In this document: piece after piece, positions 36,692 through 61,937 of the stretch
How positions within the stretch are numbered: the first letter of the stretch is position 1
Layout of the letters: every line of letters begins with the position of its first letter
IMG/VR virus record: IMGVR_UViG_3300035698_012970
Coordinates: 24,152-88,151 of that record
Strand: one strand, 5' to 3'
Length of the DNA stretch: 64,000 nt
Source of the DNA: a virus
Notes under the pieces: generated by a model
Told to the model about the DNA's origin: nothing
Databases searched by the model: none
Seen by the model: only the letters and a program-made list of their open reading frames with translations
Translations under genes and position numbers: made by a program

Positions 36692-36726
36692 AAAAAAGGT
36701 CCTTCGGAATTACCGAAGGACCTTTT
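36692..36726 (-). terminator. Attenuator terminator of tRNA operon 1
   Basis: GGTCCTTCGG-TAATT-CCGAAGGACC-TTTTTT, 7 nt upstream of tRNA-His. Confidence 0.9.
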
Positions 36727-36755
36727 AGTTATGTATTATTAACTTTAACTTAAGC

Positions 36756-36842
36756 TCAGCAAATCCTTATATCGTTCCTACCATGTAAATGGGAGAGCGA
36801 ACTTAGACAGCTTAATAGACTTATGTTAATTATGTTTTTCAT
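36756..36842 (-). CDS. Leader peptide 1 (MKNIINISLLSCLSSLSHLHGRNDIRIC)
   Basis: 28-codon ORF between promoter and terminator; codons 8-20 are all Ser/Leu/Cys/His. Confidence 0.85.
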   Translation of the reverse strand: MKNIINISLLSCLSSLSHLHGRNDIRIC

Positions 36843-36848
36843 TGTTTC

Positions 36849-36922
36849 TTATAGATTATATATCAATTTTGTTTCGTTTTTTATTTAATACAAATATAGA
36901 TCTTATTTACGTAATAAAAAAA
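36849..36922 (-). promoter_or_regulatory. Stacked promoters of tRNA operon 1
   Basis: Early-type motif at 36891-36922, GAAAC-N17-TATAA at 36849-36875, GATATATA at 36857-36864. Confidence 0.75.
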
Positions 36923-37672
36923 TTAAAAGCCAAGTTTTTCCAAATCAAAATAAATATCTAATCCTTCTCTATATTTTTCAGGTATTATTAATTTATTCTT
37001 CATTCTTTGGAAAAAAGCTTCATCCCATACATTTCTAAGTATTTTCATAGTTTGTAAAGGATTTTTTTCTATTTCACTATTAAAATAATCAGCATTTAAT
37101 ACTGTCATTGCTAGTTTCTTAGCTTCAATTCTACCTTTATACTTAAGTACATTTTTGAATCCTTTTGGATATGGATTATACCAGCCCCCACCTAATATCT
37201 CGAATTCACTACAATTAAAATAACTCTCTAATTTTTTAGGAGCCCCTTTTACACTAGTAAGCTCATTACCTAAAACATTATAAGAACCTGTAACCTCTTT
37301 TGGCCCGCCACGAAGATCCTTTAGTTTGTTTGACTGACATCTAAAATCGCCAGTTTTCTTTGGTCCTCCTTTAAGGGTAGTTAATATATTATGATCACAA
37401 TTAAATTCACGGGTAACTTCTTTAGGAGCACCTTCGAGTGTAGCTAAGATATTATGAGAACAATTGAAGTTACCAGTTACTTTATTAAAAACAATTCCAT
37501 TAAAATCACTTAATTCAGACTTAGAGCAATCAAAATCGCCTATAACGTCGATCATACCTTTTATGGTTTCCTTCCATTTACCAATAGTATACTCATTTAA
37601 GAAATCAACTTGCTCTTCGGTTATAGTACTTTCAGATTCATTTAGCTCGTTAAAATATTTTAGATGCTCCAT
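36923..37672 (-). CDS. LRR-like repeat protein, putative virion-internal
   Basis: FNCSHNILATLEGAPKEV-type repeats; MEHLKYFNELNE N-terminus. Confidence 0.7.
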   Translation of the reverse strand: MEHLKYFNELNESESTITEEQVDFLNEYTIGKWKETIKGMIDVIGDFDCSKSELSDFNGIVFNKVTGNFNCSHNILATLEGAPKEVTREFNCDHNILTTLKGGPKKTGDFRCQSNKLKDLRGGPKEVTGSYNVLGNELTSVKGAPKKLESYFNCSEFEILGGGWYNPYPKGFKNVLKYKGRIEAKKLAMTVLNADYFNSEIEKNPLQTMKILRNVWDEAFFQRMKNKLIIPEKYREGLDIYFDLEKLGF

Positions 37673-39101
37673 CTATTTTTTAAAATATTTATCGTACATC
37701 ATTTCACCAATATATCTAATTCTCTTTCCTTGTAACCAAATTTCGTTTGCTTCCTCACACATTGCTTCGGTCATATCATTTCTAACCATATTAATGACAT
37801 TATCATATGCATCAAATGCTTTCTCGCTTATTCCTTTCTCATCTGTAATGATCCCAATAATCTCATTCTCTATTCTTTTTCTGAAAGCTTCTACATGAGT
37901 AACTGCTCTACCAAAAAAATCTTCATAAGACATATCAGATTCATGGATTGGTCTTTTAATAGGATTACCAATACCTCTATCTCTATGTATGGTTTTAATA
38001 TATTGTGCTACGTGCTTGATACTTTCCAATGCAGATTTATCATCTACGTTAAATTGTGTCTTGATCTTAGCTATTAGGGCATCAAAGAGCTCATAAGTTT
38101 TATCATATACCTTTGTAGATGGTAAAATACTTAGTCCTACTCTTTCGTTCATGGATGAATCATATTCTTTTAAGTTTTCCATTATTTAATCTCCAAAAAA
38201 GATTTGTTAGGAACTACTGCTGAAATAGATCCTTCATCTTCTCCTATATTTTTATAATAATAACCACTTTTAGCATTACCCATTTTTAAATTCCTCATCA
38301 TCATGATATTTGCTTTTTCGTCAGTATGCGGATTATTTGTGGTATTAGTCATTTGACCTATGATTCTAACCGGGAATACTATTGGCTTAGAATCAAAAGG
38401 GATTTGATTATTATCAGAATAAACGGCTCTATAATTTCTATCTGTCGTATAGTAATCATCCTCGGGCACATCGCTTCCACAATTATATCCACTATCACAA
38501 TAGTACCCTAATTCATCTTTTTTCCTCTTTAGTGCTTCTTTGCCAGCTAATAATGTTTTCCCATATTCTCTAGTTCCATCCCATTCACCTTCGGCAGGAA
38601 CTCCAATTCTTGCTTGTAATGCTTGTGTTGCAGCTAATTTAGTTCCGATATGAATACCTTTCTTACCACTTAGATCCTTATTTGCCGAGCCGTGATAAAA
38701 TCCTCGACTTCCACTATAATTTTCATTTAAGAATTGTTCCCAATTATTGATCATCCTGTTGAATCTATAAATTTGATCTCCTTAGCGGTAATACCGTCTG
38801 GCTTTTCGTGGGATTTACTACGCCCACGGTGTGTATGTATAAAATATCCATTCTTGTCAATACCCATATCAAACCCATTTGGGTAATTGCCTTTACTGAT
38901 TTTCTTTTTAAGGTCTGGGTGTAGATTAAGTCCTGAGATTATTCCATTTTTGGCTCTTGAATATTCCTTACATAAAGAAACAGCAACCTCTTTAAGTTCT
39001 TTGGAAATTCCTTTTAGATATTTAATTGATTTTTCGATTGGTACGCTATCGTCAATCTGCTTAAAATTTTCGTAAAGTTCTAAATGTTCCATATAATGCA
39101 A
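37673..39101 (-). other. Three late-type genes (37673..38182; 38182..38754 ART-like FYHGS; 38751..39101)
   Basis: Coupled ORFs with capsid-targeting-like N-termini, downstream of GATATATA at 39109. Confidence 0.6.
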
Positions 39102-39107
39102 TTTGCA

Positions 39108-44144: not shown

Positions 44145-44148
44145 GATC

Positions 44149-45485: not shown

Positions 45486-45614
45486 TAAGATCCTACTCGG
45501 CGATAACGTCGCATCGGCATGGTATTTTTGCATTTTAAAATTCCGCCTCACCCCACGGCGCGAGTACTTGTCCGAAATTATACCAGCGTCCTGGTTTAAC
45601 TACATAGGATCTTA
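45486..45614 (-). ncRNA. Unidentified structured RNA
   Basis: GC-rich island closed by a TAAGATCCTA/TAGGATCTTA terminal stem. Confidence 0.5.
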
Positions 45615-45617
45615 TAG

Positions 45618-45728
45618 CGACCAGAGAGTGATTCGAACACCCCACGCAGCAGGGGCTTCCTGCCTCATTGTCCACGGTATCAATCAAGTGTGCACTACTT
45701 AAAAGGTCCCTTGTTCCATGTCAAGGCC
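45618..45728 (-). ncRNA. tRNA-like RNA (T-arm present, no canonical cloverleaf)
   Basis: GGGTG-TTCGAAT-CACTC T-arm; partial acceptor stem. Confidence 0.45.
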
Positions 45729-45740
45729 ATTTTTTAAAAA

Positions 45741-45985
45741 GAAGAATAATAGCCAGAATCCTGTATTTAACTAATCATTTGTCTTATTGCCTCACACCAC
45801 ACTATCTTTGAGCTGTTCATCCTCTAAGTGAATTTGAGTTGCATCCTCGACAGTACAAAGGTGAGTGCCATGGTGGATCTAATCCTTTAATAAATGGCAT
45901 TGGCCGTTTAACCATTTCCTACCTTCTCCTGTCTTAAACAGTAATGTTCTGAGCTTCCTCTCCGTAGAGCGATTAGCTGTTCTTC
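45741..45985 (-). ncRNA. rnpB: Minimal RNase P RNA-like ribozyme
   Basis: P1 GAAGAA/TTCTTC; P2 CTAATCG/TGATTAG; CR-I GAGGAAGCTCAGAA pairs with CR-V TTCTGGCT leaving a bulged U (P4); CR-IV AGACAAATGATT; ACAGGA. Confidence 0.8.
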
Positions 45986-46458: not shown

Positions 46459-46700
46459 TTTCTTAAATTTTAAAAAGTGATAGGGCTTGTGCCCAATTAC
46501 GAAAGTTACCTTTTCCTAATTCGGGTCATTGAGGTATAACAATGACAATTACATCGGTTCCATAATCATAATTCCTATGTTTTAAGTTAAAAAATATCCC
46601 TACTTTACTACACAACTAAACGTACGTTAAATTAGCCTAATGTCGATCGTTAAATCGCTGCTTTCTAGATAGGCAAGCCCACGGACATTTCAGAATATTG

Positions 46701-46825
46701 CGGAAGTAGATGGACTCGAACCAACAAGCAACTAAGTGTTCCCTTACTCCTAGAATAATCGATTGGTTGCACAACTGAAAATCCCGTGCTCTGATTAGAT
46801 CTCGCACTTTAGGGCTAATACTTCC
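46701..46825 (-). ncRNA. 125-nt tRNA-like RNA with expanded interior
   Basis: Perfect acceptor GGAAGTA/TACTTCC and T-loop TGG-TTCGAGT-CCA. Confidence 0.6.
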
Positions 46826-46943
46826 ATATTAAAAAAATCAAGGGTAGCGTCTTATAAGAGTCGATCATCTACCAGCTTCTCCCAGCTATTAACGAGTCAG
46901 CTTAACTCACTGTTAATCTTGATCCAGATTGTTTAAAAATAAA

Positions 46944-48320: not shown

Positions 48321-48844
48321 TATTATCGAATTGAATATTATTAGTTATAATATTCATTATATCGATCAATAAAAGTTTCATATGAAAAATCCTCATCCTC
48401 ATAATCCGAATATATTAATTCCCAGATATTCGGATCCCTTTTATATAATTCAAGATTTGTAACATGAGGTGCTAAAACATTAAATACAAAATCATCTAAT
48501 ATTCGTGGATTACTGTCAACCTGAGATTTTTGAAATAGTTTTAGAAATTTTTCCTTCTCAATATCGGAAATCGGAAATTTATCAACTTCTTCTTTTGTGA
48601 AATCTTGATCTAAAACATGAAATTCTTCCTCGTCTCCAACGAACCAACATCTAATCATATAATCAATTGTATTGTCATCATTAGTAAAGTTTTTTACCAT
48701 TTCTGTAAATTCACCTTTAAGTAATGGTATATCAAACCCTACATTTCTCAGATCCTTTACTAAATCGGAATTCTCATCTTCAAAGATTTCATAGCTGTCT
48801 ATATGTTCCATTAACTATTGTTTTTTATATATATATCTTATCTG

Positions 48845-48920
48845 TAGCGAGAGTGGGAATCGAACCCACGACCTCAGCATTATGAGTGCTGCGCTCTTAA
48901 ACCAACTGAGCTACCTCGCC
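48845..48920 (-). tRNA. tRNA-Met(CAT), elongator-type
   Basis: CAGCA-CTCATAA-TGCTG; Ile2 not excluded. Confidence 0.85.
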
Positions 48921-49457
48921 ATCACTTCCATTGGGTTTTTCTATTATGTTTCCAAGTTCGGTACATACGTATTTGGTAACTGTATATCTGTTTTCTAGGA
49001 GGTTTAGCTCCTCTTGTTTTCAATCTAGGATATAGATTGATACACTCATCCCAATATAAGGGAAATTCTATTTTTAACCAGATTTTCTTATATTCCTGGT
49101 TGTTGTTTGCTTTGTTCAGTTTTCCTCTGTATCTATTTATGCTCATAATTTTAGGTTTAGTTTTAACTATACCTAATGAGCGTCAAATTTCTTTTTCATT
49201 TTATTAAGATTTTACTAATTCATTCCACCATTGTATTTTTGGTCTTATATACGATCTATGAAAGTGAACCCTATTAAGAGTAACCAAAAAATATGGGAAA
49301 GCATATTTAGGATTCCCATTATGCTTTTCTTTGTATTCTTCATACAATTTAGAATATGATTTTTCCATAATTAATTTTAAAGATCATTTAGTTTGTAAAT
49401 AGAGATCAAAATCCATGAAATATGATCCACAAAACATGGATTGATGATCTACAAATG

Positions 49458-49533
49458 TTGGAAGAGGGGGACTTGAACCCCCGAAACCTCTACATTATCA
49501 GTGTAGCGCTCTAACCAACTGAGCTACCTTCCA
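49458..49533 (-). tRNA. tRNA-Ile(GAT)
   Basis: CTACA-CTGATAA-TGTAG. Confidence 0.92.
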
Positions 49534-50179
49534 AAGTGTTTATTATATTAGTAATTGATTCTATGATATTATCATCTGGCCATTTTATTCGATAAACTTT
49601 CCATCCTTGTGATTTCAATTTGGAATCTTTTTCTATATCAACTTTTTTTCTTTCTGGTTTATTGTGTTGTTGTCCATCAATTTCAATGACAATCTTATCT
49701 TCATGTAGTGCAAAATCAGCAAAATATTTACCAAATTTCCATTCATATTCATATTCTATACCCAAGCTATCTAACGTTCTAATTGCTATAGATTCTGGAT
49801 AAGACGGCTCTAGTTTTTTTCGAGTTTTCCAACCAAAAGAGACGTCACCATCAGCATGTCTTTTCTTAGCCATTATTGAATTCTTTTCTGCAATTTTTTC
49901 TTTGTAACCTGGTGTTTTCCATTTCAATTCAGCCGAACATGATCTAGAGCAAGTTTTCTGATTTTTTTTTCTCCATTTTACTTCAAACTCTTCCTTACAG
50001 TTCTGACAAATTAACTTTATTTTACCAGGTCCTTTATTAAACAACGTATCGGATACTTTCTTATTGAGATCTTCTCGATTTACTTTAGTAGCAAACCCTC
50101 TAGCGCATTTTATAGAACAAAATCTTCCGGAACCATAAGATCCATCATGTTTAACCCCGCAATTTTCACAAATCATCAT
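49511..50179 (-). CDS. DUF559/Vsr-like homing endonuclease with MICENC N-terminal module
   Basis: YFADF...IVIEIDGQQH...D..L...GWKVYRI; the stop codon lies inside tRNA-Ile. Confidence 0.85.
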   Translation of the reverse strand: MMICENCGVKHDGSYGSGRFCSIKCARGFATKVNREDLNKKVSDTLFNKGPGKIKLICQNCKEEFEVKWRKKNQKTCSRSCSAELKWKTPGYKEKIAEKNSIMAKKRHADGDVSFGWKTRKKLEPSYPESIAIRTLDSLGIEYEYEWKFGKYFADFALHEDKIVIEIDGQQHNKPERKKVDIEKDSKLKSQGWKVYRIKWPDDNIIESITNIINTLEGSSVG

Positions 50180-50232
50180 ATTTTAGATACTTTCTTCTAT
50201 ATATCATTTGAACCTGTGACTTTTTAGTTATG

Positions 50233-50309
50233 TCGGCAAAGAGGGATTTGAACCCCCGTGTGACCAGCTAACCTTTCTACCGGATATCAGCCGGAGGGTA
50301 TACTTGCCG
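50233..50309 (-). ncRNA. D-armless tRNA-like RNA with GAT loop
   Basis: Acceptor CGGCAAG/TTTGCCG, CCGG-CTGATAT-CCGG, T-arm GGGGG-TTCAAAT-CCCTC. Confidence 0.65.
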
Positions 50310-50310
50310 A

Positions 50311-50372
50311 TGGTCCAGGGGATTTGATGCTGTCAAACTATCAAACTCTAAGGAGTGACGTTATCGCCCCGG
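50311..50372 (-). ncRNA. Short CCA-ending RNA with G3.U70/A73 acceptor-like stem
   Basis: CCGGGG...CCCTGG-A-CCA. Confidence 0.45.
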
Positions 50373-50441
50373 ATGTTTTCTTTGTGCTTTTGTCGATGTT
50401 GGGGCACTGCCAAAACAGTAAAAACCTTACTATAACCCATG

Positions 50442-50529
50442 CTCTTGGGGTAGGATTCGAACCTACGATGGAACTTTCGCTCACCGGATTAACAGTCCGG
50501 ACCGTTCGGCCAACTACGGCAACCCAAGA
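50442..50529 (-). tRNA. tRNA-Asn(GTT) with long variable arm
   Basis: CCGGA-CTGTTAA-TCCGG; G73. Confidence 0.85.
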
Positions 50530-50541
50530 ATTTTATTTTAG

Positions 50542-50614
50542 CGCTCATAGAGGGATTCGAACCCCCAACCCTTACGTTAACAGCGTAGCGCTCTACCATT
50601 GGAGCTATATGAGC
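50542..50614 (-). tRNA. tRNA-Asn(GTT)
   Basis: TACG-CTGTTAA-CGTA. Confidence 0.9.
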
Positions 50615-51291
50615 TAGTGTATAAACTTATATGCTTCTTGTATCCAATATTTCGGATTATTAAACATATCTTTCCATTTTATTCTCAAAATTTGCCAACC
50701 TTCTTCTATTAAAGATTGGTCTTTTCTTTTGTCTCGTTCAATATACTCTTCGAATCTTTGATGCTGTTCCCCATCAATCTCTATAGCTTTCTTTTTGTTA
50801 ACCCAAGCAAAATCTATAGCATATATTGAAACTGGATATTCAGTTTCGTACTCTTTATCCAGGAAATTATTTTCTATTACTCTTTCAAAAAATTCTTCTG
50901 GGTATGATTTTTCGTTATTCCACCTACTTTTACCTATATTCCAAGCCCTTCCATCTTTATGAGCTTTTTCCATTGATTCGCTAATCAAACTTTTACTAAA
51001 TTCACTATGTTTTCTCCCAATTCCAGATTTAGCAATTTTTGCTAGCCTTTCTTCTCTCTTTGGGTTCATCTTACATAACGTCTTATGTCCTCCTAGTTTC
51101 CACCCATTACTAAATTCATTTCCACAGTATTCACAAATCCAAGGACCTTCAGACTTTTTCCTAATCCTCTTTGATTTACCTTTACTTCTACCTTTCTTAT
51201 AACTTTCTCCTCTGTTGTGTGATGATACATGACCACCTAAAGATTCTTTCTTATCAAACTTTTTACCACAAATTTTACATTGATGTTTCAT
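50614..51291 (-). CDS. C2H2 zinc-finger plus DUF559-like homing endonuclease
   Basis: CKICGKKF...LGGH; YAIDFA...AIEIDGEQH...GWQILRI. Confidence 0.85.
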   Translation of the reverse strand: MKHQCKICGKKFDKKESLGGHVSSHNRGESYKKGRSKGKSKRIRKKSEGPWICEYCGNEFSNGWKLGGHKTLCKMNPKREERLAKIAKSGIGRKHSEFSKSLISESMEKAHKDGRAWNIGKSRWNNEKSYPEEFFERVIENNFLDKEYETEYPVSIYAIDFAWVNKKKAIEIDGEQHQRFEEYIERDKRKDQSLIEEGWQILRIKWKDMFNNPKYWIQEAYKFIH

Positions 51292-51360
51292 ATGTTATAT
51301 ATCACCTCAATGTCGCGAAACCAGCGAACTGTGTGAATAAAGTACGAAAATGCGTCATTG

Positions 51361-51434
51361 CACGCCTGGTAGGATTCGAACCCACGACACCTGGTGTTGG
51401 AGACCAGTGCTCTAGCCAGCTGAGCTACAGACGT
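51361..51434 (-). tRNA. tRNA-Trp(CCA)
   Basis: CTGGT-CTCCAAC-ACCAG. Confidence 0.92.
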
Positions 51435-51533
51435 GTATATTTTCCGATTCACCGATTACCCCAATTACGGTGTCTACCGGCTTCATCGCCGGAATGCTAT
51501 TTTTGCTCGAGGATTACATTAAATCGGGAGCAG

Positions 51534-51607
51534 CAACTATGACCGGACTCGAACCGGCGACCTCCTGGGTGACAGCCAGGGATTCTAACCAACTGAACTA
51601 CATAGTT
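51534..51607 (-). tRNA. tRNA-Asp(GTC)
   Basis: CCTGG-CTGTCAC-CCAGG. Confidence 0.92.
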
Positions 51608-51819
51608 GTATATTTTATAATGTAGAAATTAATTCTTGATAACTATAATAGGATCTCCATTTATGATTGCTTGTGGATTTTCTATGTGTTTATTAAGAAA
51701 ATATAAATTATTTTTATTATAGCAATTATCTATAGAAAAAATGTATTTTTCCCCTATCTTATTTATTCTATATATCTAACTCGAACTTGGATTTTATCAA
51801 ATCTCTCGTTTAAAACTAG

Positions 51820-52094
51820 TACCCCCGGAGAGACTCGAACTCTCAACCTACGGCTTAGCTTACCAGCTACAGTTTTCACTGCCACATATGTGTTTGTGGT
51901 CTGGACTATCCCTTCATCATATTAATTTAACTTAGATGACCGCCGTCTAGTCTCTACACCTTCCTATCGCTAGGCTTGGCTCGGGATTACCATTTTAAAG
52001 GCTTCCCCGAATTTGACGGTTTACATTTTATAAATTTCTCTATAAAAGCTCCTATTCGAAGGCCGTTGCTCTTAATCCATTGAGCTACAGGAGC
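51820..52094 (-). tRNA. tRNA-Arg(TCT) interrupted by a group I intron
   Basis: Exons join as ACGGC-CTT|CTAA-GCCGT. Confidence 0.88.
51859..52058 (-). mobile_element. Group I intron (200 nt, no ORF)
   Basis: P AATTCGGGGAA, Q AATCCCGAGC, R TAGAGACTAGA, S AAGGGATAGTCC; follows a U and ends in G. Confidence 0.9.
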
Positions 52095-52099: not shown

Positions 52100-52118
52100 A
52101 CCAACATGTCAAAGAACT
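52100..52118 (-). promoter_or_regulatory. boxA-like antitermination motif
   Basis: AGTTCTTTGACATGTTGGT, identical to 61642-61660. Confidence 0.75.
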
Positions 52119-52160
52119 TGTCAATTTTTGTTTTGGTTGACATTCCAAAAGTTTACTTAT

Positions 52161-52192
52161 AAAAAAATAGGTTCCATTTCTGAAACCTATTT
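52161..52192 (-). terminator. Attenuator terminator of tRNA operon 2
   Basis: AATAGGTTTC-AGAAAT-GGAACCTA-TTTTTTT. Confidence 0.85.
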
Positions 52193-52217: not shown

Positions 52218-52304
52218 TCACGTTTGATGCAATAGGTTACATGGATTCATATCCCAGATAAAATCTGATCTAAAATTATTAATATTTCTTCCTTGTTCTA
52301 ACAT
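52218..52304 (-). CDS. Leader peptide 2 (MLEQGRNINNFRSDFIWDMNPCNLLHQT)
   Basis: 28-codon ORF between promoter and terminator; core rich in Arg/Asn/Ile/Asp/Trp/Met. Confidence 0.8.
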   Translation of the reverse strand: MLEQGRNINNFRSDFIWDMNPCNLLHQT

Positions 52305-52324: not shown

Positions 52325-52413
52325 TTATATATACTTTTAAATTTCAAAAAGTTTCGTTTTTTGTATTTTATTTTGATAATGTAAGAATATATCTTTTATA
52401 CGTAATAAAAAAA
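52325..52413 (-). promoter_or_regulatory. Stacked promoters of tRNA operon 2
   Basis: Early-type motif at 52382-52413, GAAAC at 52351-52355, GTATATATA at 52326-52334. Confidence 0.7.
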
Positions 52414-56028: not shown

Positions 56029-56748
56029 CTAAAGTCTATTTGCTAATTCAATTCTTAGTTCGTCTGTGATTTTATTAAGTTCTTCTCCATCTATCGATGA
56101 AAAAATACCATTTTCATGTATCCTATAAATCCCTCCAGGAAAATCTAGATATTTTATTGGTCCATATTTAGAGATCTTGAAGTTCATGCACCAATCAAAA
56201 TATAATTTATCCATCATCCACTCTTCTATAATACCATCCATGTTTCTGAAAACTCTACCATATGTAGCCCAATTACTATTTAATAGATCCTGTTGTGTTA
56301 TATCATTATCTATAAATTTATTAGGTAAGCAAAGCCAACTATACGAAGAATCTGGGTTGTACATACCATTGAGCTTTTTCATCCAATGCCCAGTAAATGT
56401 CATGGAATAACTAGGATTTGTATCTAAAAAATCTACTTGTTTCTGTAGTTTATATGGATCTAACCAATAATCATCACCATCTAAATATGCTATGTATTCA
56501 CCATTTGCCCTTTCTGTAAGGAACTTTATGTTTTTATTAGCACCAAGATTTTTATCATGTTTAAAAACTTTTAGATCTTTATAGATGTGTGCAACCCTTT
56601 CTATGTTATCAACTGACCGATCGGTTGATGAGTCATCACCTATTAGTATTTCAATTTCGAAATTTGTTTTCTGTCCTATTGCAGATAATATTGATTGTTC
56701 AATATAGGTTTCGAAATTATAACATGGTATAATTACACTAACTTTCAT
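56029..56748 (-). CDS. Glycosyltransferase family 2
   Basis: VSVIIPCYN, GDDSSTD, YLDGDDYW. Confidence 0.92.
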   Translation of the reverse strand: MKVSVIIPCYNFETYIEQSILSAIGQKTNFEIEILIGDDSSTDRSVDNIERVAHIYKDLKVFKHDKNLGANKNIKFLTERANGEYIAYLDGDDYWLDPYKLQKQVDFLDTNPSYSMTFTGHWMKKLNGMYNPDSSYSWLCLPNKFIDNDITQQDLLNSNWATYGRVFRNMDGIIEEWMMDKLYFDWCMNFKISKYGPIKYLDFPGGIYRIHENGIFSSIDGEELNKITDELRIELANRL

Positions 56749-57359
56749 ATTTCTTCTATTCTTGTTATCTTAGCAAAAATATTACCAATAATTTTAGGTG
56801 GTGTACCTACATATGTTCCTCCTGGGATCATTAAATGCCTAATTACTCCGGAATTCATACCAATTGTAACATCTCTAGTTATTTCTATTTTTTCTTTTAT
56901 GTTTGCCGCACTTCCTAGATAAACTCTATCTCCAATATTTACATTTCCTCCAACTATTGCTCCCGGCATTGCGCTAAAAAAATCACCTATTCTGCAATCA
57001 TGTCCTATTTGGTTTGCTCTATTTAAAATAGCATGTTTTCCTATCTGAATATTTGTTGTTAATATTGAATATGCTCCGATAAAAGAACCTTCACCTATTT
57101 CTATATTATCCATTAATAATGATGTGGAGTGAACGAAAGTAAAAAATTTAATATCTTTCGGTAACCTTTTGGTAATTTCACTTCTTTTTTGAGGATCTGC
57201 AATTGCTACCATTACCTCATATTTTTTATGATCTAATTCTGAAATTGGTTTAGTGTGTTCATTAACATATTCATCATCAACAAAGAATGTAACGGGTGTA
57301 CCCATTTGAGCTGCTACTTCTCTAGCATGCCCACCATAACCAATTATTGCTTTTTTCAT
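56745..57359 (-). CDS. Sugar acetyltransferase (PglD/NeuD-like)
   Basis: IIGYGGHAREV, hexapeptide repeats, IGHDC, YVGTP. Confidence 0.9.
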   Translation of the reverse strand: MKKAIIGYGGHAREVAAQMGTPVTFFVDDEYVNEHTKPISELDHKKYEVMVAIADPQKRSEITKRLPKDIKFFTFVHSTSLLMDNIEIGEGSFIGAYSILTTNIQIGKHAILNRANQIGHDCRIGDFFSAMPGAIVGGNVNIGDRVYLGSAANIKEKIEITRDVTIGMNSGVIRHLMIPGGTYVGTPPKIIGNIFAKITRIEEI

Positions 57360-57985
57360 TTCTTGTATATTTCAAAGTTTGATAAATCAGGATATGGGAT
57401 TTCCAAATCTTTATTAGTTTTCTTAGTACCATCAATGTTATAAAATTGATTCATCAATAATAATCCTCTAGCAGCTAATTCTGGCATCATATAGAAATTC
57501 CAACCGAGCATATCAAAATGATCGTCGTGATAAGAGGTCTCACGTCTACCACTATATCTTGCTCGCTTAAACCATAGATATGCCTGATAATTATCAGTTA
57601 GTATTGCTCCGCCCTTGCTCAATTTAAAGTGCTTATATGGACCAGTAAATGAGACACACATGTGGGTATTTGGTTTATACATATCTGCAGTAAACATTAA
57701 TGCTGAATCCCACACCTTAGTTGGTTCTAATTGATATGCACCCTTTAGTGTTTTTCCTTTTGTTGGCTTGAATTTAACTTTACCCCCTGCGTGTATTATC
57801 TCACAGGGTACAGATGGATATGTTCTAGAAGGTATAGTTACTTCTGAATCTTTAATGTTTTCATACATAAGGGATAAAAAAATAGCATTAGATGCATTAT
57901 CTACCGTTACTACGTATGGTGCTCCTGTATAATCACTTAAAGCTTTTTCAAAATTCTCAGTTATCTGGTATACCCCGTTCGCCAT
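57356..57985 (-). CDS. DegT/DnrJ/EryC1/StrS aminotransferase (short form)
   Basis: FEKALSDYTGA, VWDSA, SFTGPYKH, GGAILT, GWNFYM; likely start MANGVY at 57985. Confidence 0.85.
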   Translation of the reverse strand: MANGVYQITENFEKALSDYTGAPYVVTVDNASNAIFLSLMYENIKDSEVTIPSRTYPSVPCEIIHAGGKVKFKPTKGKTLKGAYQLEPTKVWDSALMFTADMYKPNTHMCVSFTGPYKHFKLSKGGAILTDNYQAYLWFKRARYSGRRETSYHDDHFDMLGWNFYMMPELAARGLLLMNQFYNIDGTKKTNKDLEIPYPDLSNFEIYKK

Positions 57986-58417
57986 TTTTAATTTCCTCGT
58001 CTGTTGCAAGTCTTATTGGTACGAATAGTGCAAAACCATCGTCATCCTCAAAGTGATTGCAAGTATCAATAAATGTGTTTCCAAACTTATAGCGGGTATA
58101 TTTGAATTGTTTCTCCTTGTTATCCCATTTTGCAATGGTTGCAATTCTATGCTCTCCATAGTAATGTTGACCATCAATAAGATCAACCTTAGGAACTGCT
58201 CCAGCATTGATTAATCTGGGCACATAGAAGCTTTTCCAAACCTCCGGTTCGGCTTGTGGTAAATTAGGAACATCAACGGTTTTTACAAACTTAGGTAAGT
58301 TATCCCAAGCTTCTTCTTGTTTTTTAACACGAGCTTCTTTATCCTTTCGTATAACAGCTCTAAATTCCGCTATTTGTTCTTCTGTTGGTTTCTTCTTTTC
58401 CATAAGCAAAAGTTTAG

Positions 58418-58489
58418 TACGTCTAAGAAGATTCGAACTCCCATCTCCCGGGCCGTAACCGGGTGTTCTATCCGTTGAACTATAGACGC
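58418..58489 (-). tRNA. tRNA-Arg(ACG)
   Basis: CCCGG-TTACGGC-CCGGG. Confidence 0.9.
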
Positions 58490-59146
58490 TTATGTTTTAT
58501 ATATTATAAATGATCCAGTATACTCATTAGTAACTGTTCCTGTTAGATCGTGTTCTTCACAGAATTCATCAACTGCAGGATTAACTCCAAATACTCCAGT
58601 ATAATTATAATCTCCATCCGGTTTATTATTATCTCTAAACCACATATGTTTATCTATACCATTTTCATGCATTGGATTTGTTGAATCATACCAATCCAGA
58701 CTTAAATAATCATGTCCCATTAATAAACCTCCTTGTTTTATCTTAGGGTACCAAAGTTCGATGTCCTCTTTGACGTATTTATATGTATGATTTCCATAAA
58801 TATAAACAAAATCTAGAGATTCATCGGAAAACAAATCGACTAATTCATTACTTAGTCCTCTTAACATAAAAGCTCTATTTTCAAAACCTTTTATATTATC
58901 TATTGCTTCTTGATAAGCATTAAGATGATTCTTATGATTTGATGCATCCATATATTCATTACCTAAAGGTCTCCAAGGATCTATCATATAAAGTTTACCA
59001 TCCCAGTTTTCCATTATATGTTTACTAAACTGACCTTTGAAAACCCCAATCTCAACTCCTACCTTAGCATTTTCTCTATTTAAGATCCTAGGTATCTCAG
59101 AATCTCTATCAGCATCAATTGATGTAAGCATTTTTCTTTTTATCAT
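58490..59146 (-). CDS. Class I SAM methyltransferase (Methyltransf_24-like)
   Basis: GVEIGVFKG, IDPW, GGLLMGHDY; reads DFVYIYGNH where IDGNH is usual. Confidence 0.85.
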   Translation of the reverse strand: MIKRKMLTSIDADRDSEIPRILNRENAKVGVEIGVFKGQFSKHIMENWDGKLYMIDPWRPLGNEYMDASNHKNHLNAYQEAIDNIKGFENRAFMLRGLSNELVDLFSDESLDFVYIYGNHTYKYVKEDIELWYPKIKQGGLLMGHDYLSLDWYDSTNPMHENGIDKHMWFRDNNKPDGDYNYTGVFGVNPAVDEFCEEHDLTGTVTNEYTGSFIIYKT

Positions 59147-59169
59147 ATTATCTATAGATTACATAAAAG

Positions 59170-59248
59170 TGGGAGTGGAGGGATTCGAACCCCCAATGCC
59201 GAAGCCATAGATTTACAGTCTACTAGGCGACCATTGCCCAACACTCCC
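59170..59248 (-). tRNA. tRNA-Tyr(GTA)
   Basis: GTAGA-CTGTAAA-TCTAT with variable arm. Confidence 0.9.
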
Positions 59249-59567
59249 TTATTGTTTTATATATTTGGATTTTTCATTAATGAAAATACCTTTTTATCCC
59301 TTTCTTCCCTTACATAGAAATCATTAAAAGGTGCATTAATTGCTTTAATCCTATTATCATCCTCTAAATACCATTCTGCTAATTCTAAAGCTGCATACAT
59401 TACATCACCAAATTCACCAAATTCATGATTGTCTCCATACCAACCAGTTTGTTCACCATAGTCTCTAAACTCTATAGAAAAACAAGCATTGCTGCCGTTT
59501 TTATAATGTTCTGGCTCTATATGTATGAAAACATTCTTTAATTGTAATTTATTAAGTCTTTCTCTCA

Positions 59568-60209
59568 TTATGAAATATATTCATGTTTATTAATTAGTTC
59601 CAATTCGTCAGAATTAATTTCCTTCCCTTCCCATTTTATAGAATCTATAATTAATTTAGTGTTTTTAAATAACCTAATTTCTTTTTCTTCATTAAAAGAT
59701 TCATGCTCTAGGTTCAATCTAAGGGTTTCTATCCAATCGATATGTTCTTGTTTAACTGTGGTTTCGAATAATATTATAGCTGTTTTATTGTCTTGATTGT
59801 GTCCCCAATGTGCTTCCGCAGAATCTTCATCATATGTCCAATATCTGCCAATTCTTTTTACCTTACCAGATTTTAATTTTTCCAAATAATCATCACCAAC
59901 TTTCATTTCTCGATAAAGAGTAATTTGGCTACCTAAGTGAGTAAACATATCTTTTAAATTATCAAACCTGTTTTCTAATTCATACTTAAGCCATTCTTTA
60001 AAATCCTCAGATTGGGTAATTTTATAAACCTCATCTTCATCATCAGGATCTAAATTTTCTCTATGTTCCTCCCAACTATATTGAGCTGCATACGGATCAA
60101 GAAATCCTTTTTCATCTTGTAGTTCGATAAATTTTTTATTTATAACCTCTGATGCACTAATGAAAGATAAACTTTTTTCGAATAAACGAAATGTATTAAT
60201 ATTAATCAT
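59568..60209 (-). CDS. Putative ADP-ribosyltransferase-fold protein
   Basis: TLYRE, GRYWT and EKEIRL spacing resembles R-S-E clade ARTs. Confidence 0.45.
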   Translation of the reverse strand: MININTFRLFEKSLSFISASEVINKKFIELQDEKGFLDPYAAQYSWEEHRENLDPDDEDEVYKITQSEDFKEWLKYELENRFDNLKDMFTHLGSQITLYREMKVGDDYLEKLKSGKVKRIGRYWTYDEDSAEAHWGHNQDNKTAIILFETTVKQEHIDWIETLRLNLEHESFNEEKEIRLFKNTKLIIDSIKWEGKEINSDELELINKHEYIS

Positions 60210-60212
60210 AAA

Positions 60213-60935
60213 CTATATATTTGAAATTATCTTATTTTTAAATTCTTTCAGTGTATAAATTACGCTGAAATTAAGGTTTAATTCCTTATATAAATCTAAT
60301 TTATTGAGCCAATATTCATAATCCTTGCCCAACCACTTCTTCCTTTTCTCCCTGTTAATACCATCCAATTCGATCCACTCATCGCTTTCTAACAAATATA
60401 CATCAGATACCTTAGCAGATTCTGGGATTGGTTTATGTGCTTCGAATAGAATCTGATTATCTTCCAATAGTTCATAACATTCTTTTTCCAGAATGGATTC
60501 ATACCTAGTTCCACCCTTTGTTATCCCTTTAGTTCCAAATCCTCCCTTTCTTCCAATCTCTCTTAACCTTTTTCTTTCTTCTATATTCTCACACTGCTTT
60601 TTCTTAGCGATTGATATTTTTTCTCTAGTCTCTGGTAGTATCTCTCTATTCTTCATAAACTTGGAGATATCTTTTCTACGTTCATCAGTAAAGGAGTTTA
60701 ACACGCTATTCTTTATTTTCTCCCTGACCTCTTGTCTATGTGATCCATTATTTATAGACATCCTCTCTTTCTGACTTTCGGTAAGTGGTCTACCCTTTAA
60801 ACTTTTGCTAACTTTTTGGTTAATCTCCTTTCTTTTAGATTTAGTGCTAAACCCTCTAGCACACTTTGGTGAACAGAATCTACCAGATCCATATTCTCCA
60901 CTATGTTCGCTTTCACAATTTTCACAAATTCTCAT
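60213..60935 (-). CDS. PD-(D/E)xK homing endonuclease with MRICENC N-terminal module
   Basis: ESILE, VSDVYL...WIELDG; NUMOD3-like linker. Confidence 0.75.
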   Translation of the reverse strand: MRICENCESEHSGEYGSGRFCSPKCARGFSTKSKRKEINQKVSKSLKGRPLTESQKERMSINNGSHRQEVREKIKNSVLNSFTDERRKDISKFMKNREILPETREKISIAKKKQCENIEERKRLREIGRKGGFGTKGITKGGTRYESILEKECYELLEDNQILFEAHKPIPESAKVSDVYLLESDEWIELDGINREKRKKWLGKDYEYWLNKLDLYKELNLNFSVIYTLKEFKNKIISNI

Positions 60936-60985
60936 GATTGTTTTATTTTATATATCATTCGAACTCATGACTTTTTGTTTGCTTG

Positions 60986-61071
60986 TAGGACCACCCGGAC
61001 TCGAACCGGGATTATACTTCTCGTCTCCACCATGTAAAAGTGGGATGTTTATCCAGTTACACCATGGTCCT
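60986..61071 (-). tRNA. tRNA-Val(TAC) with long variable region
   Basis: CCACT-TTTACAT-GGTGG. Confidence 0.85.
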
Positions 61072-61102
61072 ATATAATAACAAAAGTGATTTCTTGCAAC
61101 CA

Positions 61103-61180
61103 TGCCCATCACGGAGTCGAACCGCTCTGGTTGGGGTCCTGACCCCCGCTTCACTCACCCCCTACTACCACTTCAGGAAC
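61103..61180 (-). ncRNA. Degenerate tRNA-like element
   Basis: T-arm GCGG-TTCGACT-CCGT and a GGGGTC/GACCCC hairpin. Confidence 0.4.
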
Positions 61181-61197
61181 TTTTGTATTTGTTATTG

Positions 61198-61267
61198 TGG
61201 GATAGGAGAGACTCGAACTCTCCAAGGCTGAGGGTTTACAATCCTGGCCAGTATCCTTTCACATCCC
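61198..61267 (-). ncRNA. D-stem-less tRNA-like RNA with GTA loop
   Basis: GGGATG/TATCCC acceptor; GAGAG-TTCGAGT-CTCTC T-arm. Confidence 0.55.
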
Positions 61268-61273
61268 ATATTA

Positions 61274-61384
61274 CTAAGATTTGCCTTTGTGTTTGGCTTT
61301 CCTAGTATACTTCTTCTTGTTGCGTTGGATATTAGGCTTAACTGCCGCCCAGATATCCTGCATTGTCATTTCTACTTTTTTCAT
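61274..61384 (-). CDS. 36-aa basic peptide (MKKVEMTMQDIWAAVKPNIQRNKKKYTRKAKHKGKS)
   Basis: Clean small ORF filling an inter-tRNA spacer. Confidence 0.55.
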   Translation of the reverse strand: MKKVEMTMQDIWAAVKPNIQRNKKKYTRKAKHKGKS

Positions 61385-61400
61385 GATTTCTAATAATTTG

Positions 61401-61495
61401 TGACCCCTCTGGGGCTCGAACCCAGGACCCCCTGATTAAATCTTGATATTTCTTAACTAAAGTCAGGTGCTCTAAGCCAACTGAGCTAAGAGGTC
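61401..61495 (-). tRNA. tRNA-Lys(TTT) with a 20-nt anticodon-loop insertion
   Basis: CCTGA-CTTT[insert]TAA-TCAGG; other arms canonical. Confidence 0.8.
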
Positions 61496-61561
61496 AATCC
61501 TACTAACTTGTTTCCATTGAAGCAAGTTTTTCTAATTTTTTTCTTTCTCTATATGCTTTAG

Positions 61562-61635
61562 TACCCTGTGCCGGAATCGAACCGAGCATTTGGGGAGTGA
61601 AAGTCCCCCGTACTGAACCGTTATACGAACAGGGT
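61562..61635 (-). tRNA. tRNA-Glu(TTC)
   Basis: GGGGA-CTTTCAC-TCCCC. Confidence 0.92.
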
Positions 61636-61641
61636 ATAGTA

Positions 61642-61660
61642 ACCAACATGTCAAAGAACT
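61642..61660 (-). promoter_or_regulatory. boxA-like antitermination motif
   Basis: AGTTCTTTGACATGTTGGT, preceded by a TGTAAAT/ATTTACA hairpin. Confidence 0.75.
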
Positions 61661-61694
61661 GTAAATTTGAGGTATTTACAAAACCTATATCAAC

Positions 61695-61726
61695 AAAAAA
61701 GCCTAAATCTTTTGGATTTAGGCTTT
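61695..61726 (-). terminator. Attenuator terminator of tRNA operon 3
   Basis: GCCTAAATC-CAAAA-GATTTAGGC-TTTTTT. Confidence 0.9.
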
Positions 61727-61745
61727 ATCATTATAGTAATTATTA

Positions 61746-61856
61746 TTACATGATATTATGTAAAGCCCAAAATCCTCCCTCTTCATACTTCTTATAGTAT
61801 GCTACCACGACAGAGCGTGAAGAGTTGTTTACAGTATTTAAGCTATTCAAATTCAT
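61746..61856 (-). CDS. Leader peptide 3 (MNLNSLNTVNNSSRSVVVAYYKKYEEGGFWALHNIM)
   Basis: 36-codon ORF between promoter and terminator; core of Arg/Val/Tyr/Lys/Glu codons. Confidence 0.85.
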   Translation of the reverse strand: MNLNSLNTVNNSSRSVVVAYYKKYEEGGFWALHNIM

Positions 61857-61876
61857 TATTTCTATTTGTTTGAGTA

Positions 61877-61937
61877 TTATATATCTTTTCCTTTTAAAGT
61901 TTCACCAAATATAGGAAACTTTTACGTTATAAAAAAA
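61877..61937 (-). promoter_or_regulatory. Stacked promoters of tRNA operon 3
   Basis: Early-type motif at 61906-61937, GAAAC-N17-TATAA at 61877-61903, GATATATA at 61878-61885. Confidence 0.75.

Follow-up and report, generated by a model that had tools for sequence, protein, structure and literature searches.

Leader-peptide attenuators of the enterobacteria can be multivalent—the ilvGMEDA leader answers to Ile, Leu and Val, and the thr leader to Thr and Ile—and trpL is a further system of this kind. The E. coli pheST attenuator, with its pheM leader, controls an aminoacyl-tRNA synthetase, senses one amino acid and belongs to a cellular gene, and in Bacteroidota the Bacteroid-trp leader motif (Rfam) represents leader-peptide attenuation limited to trp biosynthesis and to Trp codons. 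T-box riboswitches bind uncharged tRNA directly, without translation, and carry a conserved Stem I and T-box sequence. The targets of the known attenuators—genes for amino-acid biosynthesis, transport and aminoacyl-tRNA synthetases—are a habit of the members rather than a part of the mechanism. Phage tRNA arrays are commonly regarded as a constitutive supplement to codon usage, or as a reserve against defences that cleave tRNAs, and to our knowledge little is understood of how their genes are controlled. As reference systems we used the pheL and hisL leader-peptide attenuators of enterobacterial amino-acid operons (PMC3082878, PMC4046918), together with rrn antitermination (boxB-boxA-boxC, with NusB-NusE/S10, NusA, NusG and SuhB) and the lambda nut sites (PMC10931766). 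Full-text literature searches returned no description of leader-peptide control of tRNA genes, in agreement with the original prediction, whose author knew of no leader-peptide attenuation of phage tRNA arrays.

The window analysed here is a 64,000-nucleotide stretch of the 88-kb contig of a Bacteroidota phage from a salt lake (IMG/VR record IMGVR_UViG_3300035698_012970). ARAGORN and Rfam placed three minus-strand tRNA clusters in it, and the order of elements upstream is common to all three—a promoter-like motif, a short ORF and a strong hairpin with a T-run, followed by the tRNAs (Table 1). This layout had been predicted with leader ORFs of 28, 28 and 36 codons; every part could be located in three of three cassettes, the promoters as motif matches, and the ORFs have exactly these lengths. 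We consider it likely that ribosome-mediated transcription attenuation controls each tRNA cluster, by way of a leader peptide written in codons that the downstream tRNAs read; the phage would then probably make a tRNA block only when ribosomes read that block's codons slowly.

Table 1. Elements of the three tRNA cassettes; positions are counted from the first letter of the window
Feature	Position	Strand	Description
Cassette 1 promoter-like motif	36891..36920	-	TTTTTATTACGTAAAT ... TATATTTG; consensus match only
Leader ORF 1	36756..36842	-	28 codons, MKNIINISLLSCLSSLSHLHGRNDIRIC
Regulatory run of leader 1	36783..36821	-	codons 8-20 (SLLSCLSSLSHLH), 13/13 cognate to His/Leu x3/Ser x3/Cys
Candidate antiterminator strand, leader 1	36761..36768	-	AAGGATTT, 8 bp with 2 G-U; z -0.6, not significant
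Terminator 1	36692..36726	-	13-14 bp stem + T6, dG -21.7 kcal/mol; ends 8 nt before G-1 of tRNA-His
tRNA cluster 1	35093..36683	-	His(GUG), Leu(UAG), Leu(UAA), HNH ORF, Leu(GAG), Ser(UGA)-like (35462-35547), Ser(GCU), Ser(GGA), Cys(GCA)
Cassette 2 promoter-like motif	52382..52411	-	-7 box degenerate: TATTCTTA
Leader ORF 2	52218..52304	-	28 codons, MLEQGRNINNFRSDFIWDMNPCNLLHQT; also chosen by the automatic leader-picking rule
Regulatory run of leader 2	52245..52289	-	codons 6-20, 12/15 cognate to Arg(UCU)/Asp/Trp/Asn/Ile/Met; both Arg codons AGA
Antiterminator strand, leader 2	52230..52240	-	GTAACCTATTG; z -2.3 versus shuffles; repeats terminator 3' arm
Terminator 2	52161..52192	-	hairpin + T-run, dG -12.8 kcal/mol
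Hairpin just 5' of boxA (boxB-like position), cassette 2	52119..52142	-	structure prediction only
boxA-type element, cassette 2	52101..52117	-	17-mer GTTCTTTGACATGTTGG
tRNA cluster 2	48844..52094	-	Arg(UCU) with intron, Asp, Trp, endonuclease ORF, Asn, Asn (long-arm), endonuclease ORF, Ile(GAU), Met(CAU)
Cassette 3 promoter-like motif	61906..61935	-	TTTTTATAACGTAAAA ... TATATTTG
Leader ORF 3	61746..61856	-	36 codons, MNLNSLNTVNNSSRSVVVAYYKKYEEGGFWALHNIM; also chosen by the automatic leader-picking rule
Regulatory run of leader 3	61779..61817	-	codons 14-26, 10/13 cognate to Glu/Lys/Val/Tyr/Arg(ACG); Arg codon CGC
Antiterminator strand, leader 3	61761..61775	-	GGATTTTGGGCTTTA; z -4.0 versus shuffles
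Terminator 3	61695..61726	-	hairpin + T-run, dG -14.2 kcal/mol
Hairpin just 5' of boxA (boxB-like position), cassette 3	61660..61680	-	
boxA-type element, cassette 3	61643..61659	-	same sequence as cassette 2 copy
tRNA cluster 3	58417..61635	-	Glu(UUC), Lys(UUU, 20-nt insert), Val(UAC), three ORFs, Tyr(GUA), methyltransferase ORF, Arg(ACG)

The promoter-like motif—a T-run or TTACGTAAA, a spacer of 15-16 nt and TAnnTTTG—has six minus-strand copies, each 5' of an ORF. Cassettes 1 and 3 carry an exact copy of its -7 box, which we take to match the Bacteroidota consensus TAnnTTTG, and cassette 2 a degenerate one; the three cassettes' putative promoters were assigned from this motif. The leader ORFs start 11-20 nt 3' of a common GATATATAAT-like box and end 19-30 nt 5' of the terminator arm. 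The earlier statement that the leaders share no obvious sequence holds for the ORFs; it does not hold for the cassettes, which have the promoter motif and the GATATATAAT-like box in common, with an 18-mer shared by cassettes 2 and 3. No Shine-Dalgarno sequence is visible before the leader ORFs of the three cassettes, as expected for Bacteroidota, so that initiation of leader translation would depend on the ATG by itself. Exact matches to the window occur among DNA contigs of four salt-lake metagenomes at about 4x depth, and no variant falls inside leaders 2 or 3 among the listed differences to these contigs (240 further differences are unlisted). No RNA run is listed among the sequencing runs that contain the sequence.

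Scored codon by codon with standard wobble, each leader contains the central run of codons for its own operon that had been claimed, at the fractions given in Table 1, and the match is specific to the reading frame: own-cluster codon matches in frames 0, +1 and +2 number 14, 2 and 7 for leader 1, 13, 6 and 7 for leader 2, and 11, 3 and 8 for leader 3. The run of leader 3 rises to 11 of 13 cognate codons if U34 of tRNA-Val also reads GUC. The run codons that lack a cognate tRNA in the contig are two Phe codons and one Ser codon in leader 2, and one Ser and one Ala codon in leader 3. Among 176,226 six-frame windows of the 88-kb contig, runs 1 and 2 are unique, each directly upstream of the matching cluster; windows such as run 3 are found at four places in the scan.

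We extended the comparison to 14 leader families, comprising 11 from IMG/VR loci—selected by a picking rule blind to tRNA identity—and the three from the window. The predicted co-variation of leader codons with downstream anticodons was recovered: the cognate fraction summed over the leaders' own arrays reached 7.70, against 4.46 +/- 0.45 with permuted arrays (0 of 200,000 permutations as high), and the own array ranked first for 13 of the 14 leaders. Cognate codons make up 53.6% of codons in frame versus 22-24% out of frame. Arg codons follow the isoacceptor, with AGR to CGN at 5 to 1 where the array holds Arg(UCU) and CGN to AGR at 4 to 2 where it holds Arg(ACG); isoacceptor tracking at the codon level is a trend for Arg only, the numbers for Ile, Ser and Leu being too small to judge. 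Cognate codons are most frequent 9-24 codons upstream of the stop (about 0.7) and depleted in the last four codons (0.27), a distribution to be expected if the antiterminator has to be blocked by a ribosome close to the stop. Within the family whose leader codes for D/E/V/L/A/W, covariation was uninformative, with arms that are nearly invariant. An analogous cassette is present in LR756500.1, the nearest relative whose genome is published; its peptide differs but covers the same amino-acid set, and the order is MINLVNIIDNRRDDNNIIQSSWA, terminator, boxA, and the tRNAs Asn, Asp, Arg(UCU) and Met. In syntenic relatives reached through a 708-aa protein (L008-L025, 50-67% identity), the tRNAs directly follow a 121-aa gene, with no promoter, leader or terminator, and the cassette is therefore not universal. 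A search through the 249-aa protein upstream of cassette 1 found no relatives, megablast found no match to 25 kb of the window among GenBank phages, and blastn with one IMG/VR cassette found no match among cultured phages; no cultured model system was identified.

Between each leader ORF and its tRNA genes lies a terminator with a stem of 12-14 bp followed by T6-T7, and a simple scan from leader to cluster end detected no other minus-strand terminator-like site, save one inside the tRNA-His gene. The 3' end of each leader had been described as complementary to the 5' arm of its terminator, a claim that stands for leaders 2 and 3; in leader 1 the complementarity is present and no better than chance. 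Across the 14 families, duplexes between leader and own terminator arm sum to -173 kcal/mol, versus -119 +/- 9 for permuted pairs (0 of 100,000), and in 12 of 14 the leader segment that pairs has its end no more than 15 nt from the stop codon. The proposed folding with a ribosome mask, applied to transcripts cut before the terminator 3' arm, predicts a trp-type switch in which the antiterminator is free to form with a ribosome in the run and is blocked with one at the stop codon: the 5' arm is paired at about 0.6, 0.77 and 0.99 in leaders 1, 2 and 3 in the former state and at 0.10, 0.13 and 0.03 in the latter. Only RNA 3' of the ribosome was folded here, as pairs spanning the bound ribosome are an artefact for leader 3 at the stop codon. 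In leaders 2 and 3 the switch point coincides with the end of the run (codons 19/20 in leader 2). In full-transcript equilibrium folds of leaders 1 and 2 the terminator wins at every ribosome position, and the model consequently depends on co-transcriptional kinetics, as for trp. Untranslated leader 1 is predicted to fold into a long hairpin (nt 14-98) in which the antiterminator strand is buried, leaving the arm paired at only 0.25. For leaders 2 and 3 the folds predict no protector hairpin and an antiterminator that forms by default when they are untranslated (0.73 and 0.99); without any translation they are thus predicted to read through, unlike trp.

These features place the cassettes close to the enterobacterial leaders in several respects: a short leader, presumably translated here, with a regulatory codon run that would sense several amino acids, and a terminator opposed to an antiterminator that excludes it and has its 5' strand at the ORF end (weakly so in leader 1). 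Unlike those systems, the element is phage-encoded, tRNA genes take the place of biosynthetic genes, two of the three phage leaders are predicted to lack a protector (1:2) hairpin, and an rRNA-type boxA follows the terminator. Where enterobacterial leaders repeat one to three amino acids, the phage run samples up to 18 tRNA species with 1-3 codons each. Bacteroid-trp shows attenuation in use within the same phylum, there limited to trp biosynthesis and Trp codons.

The 18-mer identical in cassettes 2 and 3 lies between terminator and first tRNA, 6-10 nt from the latter, and includes the hexamer TTGACA. Its boxA-type element sits 6-7 nt from the first tRNA of clusters 2 and 3 and has no counterpart at cluster 1. 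At least 19 rrn loci—all of them from Bacteroidota—contain the exact 16-nt core, TTCTTTGACATGTTGG, downstream of the spacer tRNAs and 30-100 nt upstream of 23S rRNA. The same core recurs in IMG/VR phage contigs, where a tRNA follows within 45 nt in 56 of 116 occurrences; it often lies 12-20 nt after a terminator T-run, too short a distance to accommodate a separate promoter. We discarded the 16-mer as a sigma-70 or Bacteroidota promoter because of its misfitting spacing and its position inside rrn operons, and a boxA candidate in Cellulophaga phage phi17:2_18 as a three-mismatch look-alike with no tRNA nearby. As in rrn operons, the nascent transcript would carry the element in front of long RNA genes that are not translated; unlike there, it is placed behind a putatively regulated terminator in a tRNA array. 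Its putative function—binding of NusB-S10 and a termination-resistant RNA polymerase—is taken from the E. coli system (PMC10931766).

In the mechanism we propose, host RNA polymerase would start at the Bacteroidota-type promoter and transcribe the short ORF, the 3' part of which, paired with the 5' arm of the strong intrinsic terminator, would constitute the antiterminator. Were the run read fast, the ribosome at the last codons or the stop would cover the antiterminator strand, the terminator would form and the tRNA genes would stay off; were a decoding tRNA scarce, the ribosome would stall anywhere in the run, the antiterminator would form first and the polymerase would read through. In clusters 2 and 3 the rRNA-type boxA would then be transcribed and probably load a Nus antitermination complex that persists over the more than 3 kb which the tRNA genes and the inserted endonuclease ORFs occupy. 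The new phage tRNAs would relieve the stall directly—a property that the enterobacterial leader systems do not have—and each tRNA block would thereby have its own homeostat of decoding capacity, working by negative feedback. The core of the original prediction, that slow decoding of a cluster's own codons opens its terminator, is supported by the co-variation, the frame specificity, the arm pairing, the mask folds and the cassette of LR756500.1, and it came through each of the computational checks that had been suggested. The triggers named along with it, amino-acid starvation or tRNA cleavage of the PrrC, RloC or PARIS type, are hypothetical. Like pheST, such a circuit would put leader-peptide attenuation on a component of the translation apparatus and sense the supply of charged tRNA; it differs in acting on phage tRNA genes and on several amino acids, rather than on a cellular synthetase and a single one. 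A bolder extension, which we hold to be possible rather than likely, is that in Bacteroidota phages each tRNA block is a self-correcting decoding homeostat, with a leader that indexes every tRNA by codon, and also an inducible counter-defence that supplies replacement tRNAs once host anticodon nucleases, or phage-induced tRNA turnover, have depleted those of the host.

The leaders could instead serve as a general gate on translation status, reporting whether ribosomes load and finish (through supply, host shut-off or infection timing) with codon identity secondary. The predicted read-through of untranslated leaders 2 and 3 would make them sensitive to any loss of translation, and boxA ties the arrays to rRNA-type control of the translation apparatus; such a gate, however, leaves unexplained why leader codons track anticodons across 14 families and why leaders 2 and 3 use different Arg codons, and we judge it improbable. 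Another reading takes the codon run as a series of specifier triplets to which tRNA anticodons would bind directly, as in a T-box, with no need for translation. The run triplets are indeed complementary to the anticodons of the downstream tRNAs, and the cassettes resemble T-box riboswitches in an antitermination that would answer tRNA status and in a specificity written as codons in the leader. The phage triplets, unlike those of a T-box, sit in an ORF, in frame with its ATG and stop, and the in-frame excess of cognate codons (rounded, 54%) as well as the placement of the stop, where in 12 of 14 families a ribosome that terminates would lie over the antiterminator strand, argue against this reading. 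An Rfam scan of 34000-64000 at E <= 0.1 gave neither a T-box nor any other known cis-regulatory family, and no acceptor-end binding element is evident; direct sensing by RNA appears very unlikely.

Equally, ORF and hairpin might have nothing to do with the tRNAs—a tiny gene or the end of an upstream operon, with the tRNAs transcribed from a promoter of their own in the 18-mer and a coincidental codon match. TTGACA just 5' of the first tRNA would suit such a promoter, and a terminator in front of a tRNA block would also insulate it. Against this arrangement, the 16-nt core between tRNA-Ala and 23S rRNA in rrn operons marks a boxA position and not a promoter, cassette 1 has no 18-mer and its tRNA-His begins 8 nt after the T-run, and coincidence is excluded by the permutation and window statistics; we accord it only a slight probability. 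Finally, the peptides themselves might be functional micro-proteins, for example membrane peptides, with a composition selected for their own activity, and some leader families are in fact hydrophobic (MKNLLDILMVALVAVLW...). Within and between families, however, the residue order shifts while the amino-acid set follows the tRNA array, the conserved parts of the ORFs are those that form the RNA switch, and the three window peptides have no sequence in common, which leaves this explanation with hardly any probability.

An attenuator in front of tRNA genes would, if true, be the first case of the classic mechanism regulating the very molecules that it senses, closing a direct feedback loop on decoding capacity. 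With three cassettes for separate amino-acid sets in one genome the design is modular, and it is widespread in uncultured Bacteroidota phages. It also leads to clear predictions from the sequence: the tRNAs that share a transcription unit, even where 3 kb and inserted endonuclease genes separate them, and the codons by which each tRNA block should be induced. Should the homeostat and counter-defence reading hold, the leaders would reveal transcription-unit membership as well as the decoding steps that limit infection. The rRNA-type boxA behind the terminator would be a second layer borrowed from the host, and it indicates the host phylum.

Additional observations concern the tRNA clusters themselves. 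No tRNA-repair enzyme was detected among the neighbouring ORFs scanned against Pfam. The Ser(UGA)-like tRNA of cluster 1, missed by ARAGORN, explains the TCG codon of leader 1. The Arg(UCU) tRNA of cluster 2 is split by a group I intron (Rfam RF00028, 81.5 bits) into exons at 52094-52059 and 51858-51820.

Ahead of each of the three tRNA clusters of the window, the same elements recur in order: a promoter-like motif (a T-run/TTACGTAAA, a 15–16-nt spacer and TAnnTTTG), a GATATATAAT-like box, a short ATG-initiated ORF (28, 28 and 36 codons in cassettes 1, 2 and 3, respectively) and a strong hairpin followed by a T-run. The order of promoter, leader ORF, terminator and first tRNA put forward in the original prediction was recovered in each cassette, with the promoter identified as a motif match of which the minus strand has six, each followed by an ORF. 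In cassette 1, only 8 nt separate the T-run from the tRNA-His gene, in which G-1 is encoded; cassettes 2 and 3 have, between terminator and first tRNA, a small hairpin and an 18-mer, GTTCTTTGACATGTTGGT, that is the same in both. The leaders had also been proposed to carry central runs of codons for the amino acids of their own operons, and this was borne out when cognate codons were scored by standard wobble rules: codons 8–20 of leader 1 are all cognate to cluster 1 tRNAs (13/13), as are 12 of the 15 codons at positions 6–20 of leader 2 and 10 of the 13 at positions 14–26 of leader 3 to those of clusters 2 and 3. A six-frame scan of the 88-kb contig (176,000 windows) reached the scores of runs 1 and 2 nowhere else, and that of run 3 at four places, leader 3 being one of them. 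Own-cluster matches collapse out of frame (frames 0/+1/+2: 14/2/7, 13/6/7 and 11/3/8 for leaders 1, 2 and 3), and the arginine isoacceptors are kept apart, leader 2 using AGA (two codons) and leader 3 using CGC.

Features of the three tRNA clusters and their surroundings (window coordinates)
Feature	Position	Strand	Details
Leader ORF 1	36842-36756	minus
Terminator hairpin 1	36726-36692	minus
Cluster 1	36683-35093	minus	His, Leu(UAG), Leu(UAA), Leu(GAG), Ser(UGA), Ser(GCU), Ser(GGA), Cys
Ser(UGA)-like class II tRNA	35462-35547	minus	anticodon loop CUUGAAA; missed by ARAGORN
Leader ORF 2	52304-52218	minus
Terminator hairpin 2	52192-52161	minus
Cluster 2	52094-48844	minus	Arg(UCU), Asp, Trp, Asn, Asn, Ile(GAU), Met
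tRNA-Arg(UCU)	51820-52094	minus	exons 52094-52059 and 51858-51820; group I intron RF00028, 81.5 bits
89-nt tRNA	50441-50529	minus	anticodon GUU (Asn)
Leader ORF 3	61856-61746	minus
Terminator hairpin 3	61726-61695	minus
Cluster 3	61635-58417	minus	Glu, Lys(UUU), Val, Tyr, Arg(ACG)
tRNA-Lys(UUU)	61401-61495	minus	20-nt insert in anticodon loop
Endonuclease ORFs between tRNA genes	35659-36330, 49511-50179, 50614-51291	minus	one HNH, two DUF559/MTES_1575
Methyltransferase ORF (Methyltransf_24)	58490-59146	minus	between tRNA-Tyr and tRNA-Arg, cluster 3
Sugar-modification set	56029-58409	minus	just 3' of cluster 3
Overlapping aminotransferase ORFs	57356-58009, 57957-58409	minus	DegT match limited to 57356-58009, about one quarter of the domain model, from its start
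Tyrosine recombinase	62530-63330	minus	just upstream of cassette 3
ORF-poor stretch	45486-47230

To gain a broader view of these leaders, we used the 16-nt core of the 18-mer as a query, which retrieved more than 115 loci in IMG/VR. Of 116 occurrences, 56 are followed on the same strand by a tRNA that starts no more than 45 nt away, and 45 are preceded by a T-run at a distance of up to 60 nt; the 16-mer in phage loci is not a chance sequence. Small ORFs 5' of the terminators in these loci have compositions that track the tRNA array: an Asp/Glu/Val/Leu/Ala/Trp array follows the leader MKNLLDILMVALVAVLWAADEDRLYSVG, a Phe/Ile/Gln/Lys/Val/Tyr/Cys/His/Arg/Trp/Leu/Asn array follows MKLVNKQIVKHVIQFCQNWYIRLF..., a Ser(UGA)/Arg(UCU)/Pro/Ile(UAU)/Met/Leu(UAA) array follows MKTIFNISPSILRPSIRRS (with codons ATA, TCA, AGA and TTA), and a Pro/Gln/Tyr/Thr/Gly/Lys array follows MRTTGTTYQPKQYTQGGKP.... 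Leaders were then picked by a rule blind to tRNA identity—the first ORF of 15 codons or more that opens with ATG, starting 100–240 nt and ending 25–135 nt upstream of the motif, with a hairpin and T-run obligatory—and merged at 60% peptide identity, giving 14 families that include the three window leaders, two of which (2 and 3) were also selected by the blind rule itself. Leader codons co-vary with the downstream anticodons across these families: the summed cognate fraction for own arrays was 7.70 against 4.46 ± 0.45 for permuted ones, with none of 200,000 permutations as high, and after normalisation for array size the own array ranked top for 13 of the 14 leaders. Cognate codons made up 53.6% in frame as opposed to 22% and 24% out of frame, and their density peaked at about 0.7 between 9 and 24 codons before the stop, being low in the last four codons (0.27) and the first three (0.38).

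Judged by the 708-aa marker protein, the uncultured phage LR756500.1 is the closest relative; it carries a leader MINLVNIIDNRRDDNNIIQSSWA, a terminator and a boxA with one mismatch, followed by Asn, Asp, Arg(UCU) and Met; the amino-acid set is that of window cluster 2, and both the peptide and the terminator sequence differ. In the relatives found via the marker protein, the tRNAs directly follow the neighbouring gene and a leader is absent at that site. We also observed a phage-type cassette in a contig filed as a bacterial genome (L268, genome_contigs), with a leader MRTSMVHISSFKQQEICSWYRYV..., a terminator and boxA preceding Val and Glu; this contig represents either a prophage or phage sequence that was binned. 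In the Asp/Glu/Val/Leu/Ala/Trp leader family, a conserved A(A/C)C(C/A)TCCTTTCTTA element, which we take to resemble the 3' end of 16S rRNA, lies between leader stop and terminator (loci L069, L074, L087, L098, L117, L135, L143 and L150); it is absent from the window's cassettes.

From a structural perspective, each window leader contains a segment near the 3' end of its ORF that resembles the 3' arm of the terminator and can therefore pair with the 5' arm. The predicted complementarity between leader 3' end and terminator 5' arm held for leader 2 (GTAACCTATTG, z of -2.3 against shuffled leaders) and leader 3 (GGATTTTGGGCTTTA, z of -4.0), but for leader 1 (AAGGATTT, z of -0.6) it was not significant when taken alone. 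Over all 14 families, own leader-arm duplexes summed to -173 kcal/mol compared with -119 ± 9 for permuted pairs (0/100,000), even as the arm sequences themselves vary among families (CCCGAC, CCCGAAC, GGACCTT, AAGCCCGGC and others); in 12 of the 14, the pairing segment ends no more than 15 nt from the stop codon. Since equilibrium folds of the complete leaders 1 and 2 favour the terminator, as they likewise do for trp, we folded transcripts truncated before the 3' arm, using only RNA 3' of the ribosome footprint (A-site -15 to +12). With the ribosome in the run, the 5' arm was sequestered at approximately 0.6, 0.77 and 0.99 in leaders 1, 2 and 3, dropping to 0.10, 0.13 and 0.03 with the ribosome at the last codons or the stop, and the switch point fell at I25, M19/N20 and E25–G27, respectively. 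When no ribosome was placed, a long hairpin concealed the antiterminator strand of leader 1 (arm paired 0.25), and the antiterminator formed in leaders 2 and 3 (0.73 and 0.99). On the basis of these folds, the outcome is predicted to follow decoding speed, such that fast decoding would lead to termination and a slow codon anywhere in the run to read-through; in leaders 2 and 3, an untranslated leader would also be read through.

The best-supported reading is a trp-type, ribosome-mediated attenuation that is adapted to tRNA genes and multivalent. Each leader would sample one to three codons per tRNA of its own block, a ribosome stalled at any sampled codon would open the terminator, and the tRNAs made by read-through would relieve the stall; we infer leader translation, termination at the hairpin and the sign of the response. 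The trigger may be a phage codon usage that the host tRNA pool does not match, a loss of host tRNAs as infection proceeds, or a defence based on anticodon nucleases. The cassettes would be induced by amino-acid starvation as well, yet extra tRNA would not cure that. Full-text literature searches turned up leader-peptide attenuation of amino-acid, synthetase and resistance genes, but none of tRNA genes or phage tRNA arrays, in agreement with the earlier claim that it had not been described for the latter. The proposed mechanism is that of classical attenuators; what is new here is the regulated class, tRNA genes, together with a leader that indexes its block and the combination with a boxA-type motif.

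As regards this motif, a search of 596 Gb of bacterial and archaeal genomes matched the exact 16-mer in 120 stretches, many of them expected by chance in a search of that size. In every locus holding rRNA genes, it lies after the spacer tRNAs and 30–100 nt before the 23S rRNA, and these loci (at least 19) all belong to Bacteroidota (Flavobacteriales, Bacteroidales, Cytophagales and Prolixibacteraceae); the host is therefore very probably a member of this phylum. The position in rrn loci is that of the spacer boxA, and we take the 16-mer to resemble the boxA consensus of E. coli and B. subtilis. In many phage loci, 12–20 nt separate the T-run from the start of the motif, whose RNA must therefore come from upstream, through the terminator. 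Clusters 2 and 3, which carry the motif, are the longer two of the three, at 3.2 kb each and with ORFs inserted, and processive antitermination by the candidate boxA would be useful there, with Nus factors presumably loading at the phage motif. The rrn boxA is a NusB-S10 site through which the polymerase becomes able to withstand premature termination, chiefly of the Rho-dependent kind (PMC10931766). In phages, roughly half of the boxA copies have no tRNA downstream (L049, L052, L064, L066, L071 and similar IMG/VR loci), and one recurrent family among them reads ...GCGTTCTTTGACATGTTGGTAATAATTTCGTAATCGG....

ARAGORN detected 18 tRNA genes in the window, all on the minus strand and grouped in three clusters, to which Rfam and manual reading added an Arg(UCU) and a Ser(UGA)-like tRNA. 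The former, misread by ARAGORN, contains a 200-nt group I intron that separates anticodon positions 34 and 35; its splice sites were deduced from a U at the 5' site, a G ending the intron and the restored 7-nt loop CTTCTAA. The Ser(UGA)-like tRNA would decode the TCG codon of leader 1. Its acceptor stem is long and its T loop unusual, and its best match is the tRNA-Sec model, at 38.1 bits against a gathering score of 47. The insert in tRNA-Lys(UUU) is smaller than a self-splicing intron, and the 89-nt tRNA has an Asn anticodon, yet a class II-type long variable arm, and adjoins an ordinary 74-nt tRNA-Asn(GUU). The clusters are broken up by ORFs that include the methyltransferase and the three endonucleases, which are likely homing endonucleases; one of the three (50614-51291, DUF559/MTES_1575) gave a clear C2H2 zinc-finger match.

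The window covers positions 24152-88151 of an 88-kb IMG/VR viral contig, 38% complete by CheckV; it is AT-rich (G+C of ~32%), with nearly all long ORFs on the minus strand, and identical DNA contigs occur in salt-lake metagenomes of 2017–2019. The marker protein shares 61% identity with its homologue in LR756500.1 (462 kb) and ~52% with those in Cellulophaga phages phi17:2 and phi4:1. No Rfam family matched the ORF-poor stretch (scan of 34000-64000, E <= 0.1), and a tRNA-repair gene was absent among the neighbouring ORFs scanned against Pfam. The phage is large and apparently of lytic type; the recombinase near cassette 3 combines Phage_integrase and SAM-like N-terminal domains. The sugar-modification set comprises a GT2 glycosyltransferase, a PglD-like hexapeptide acetyltransferase and a DegT-type aminotransferase, whose two overlapping ORFs may reflect a frameshift.
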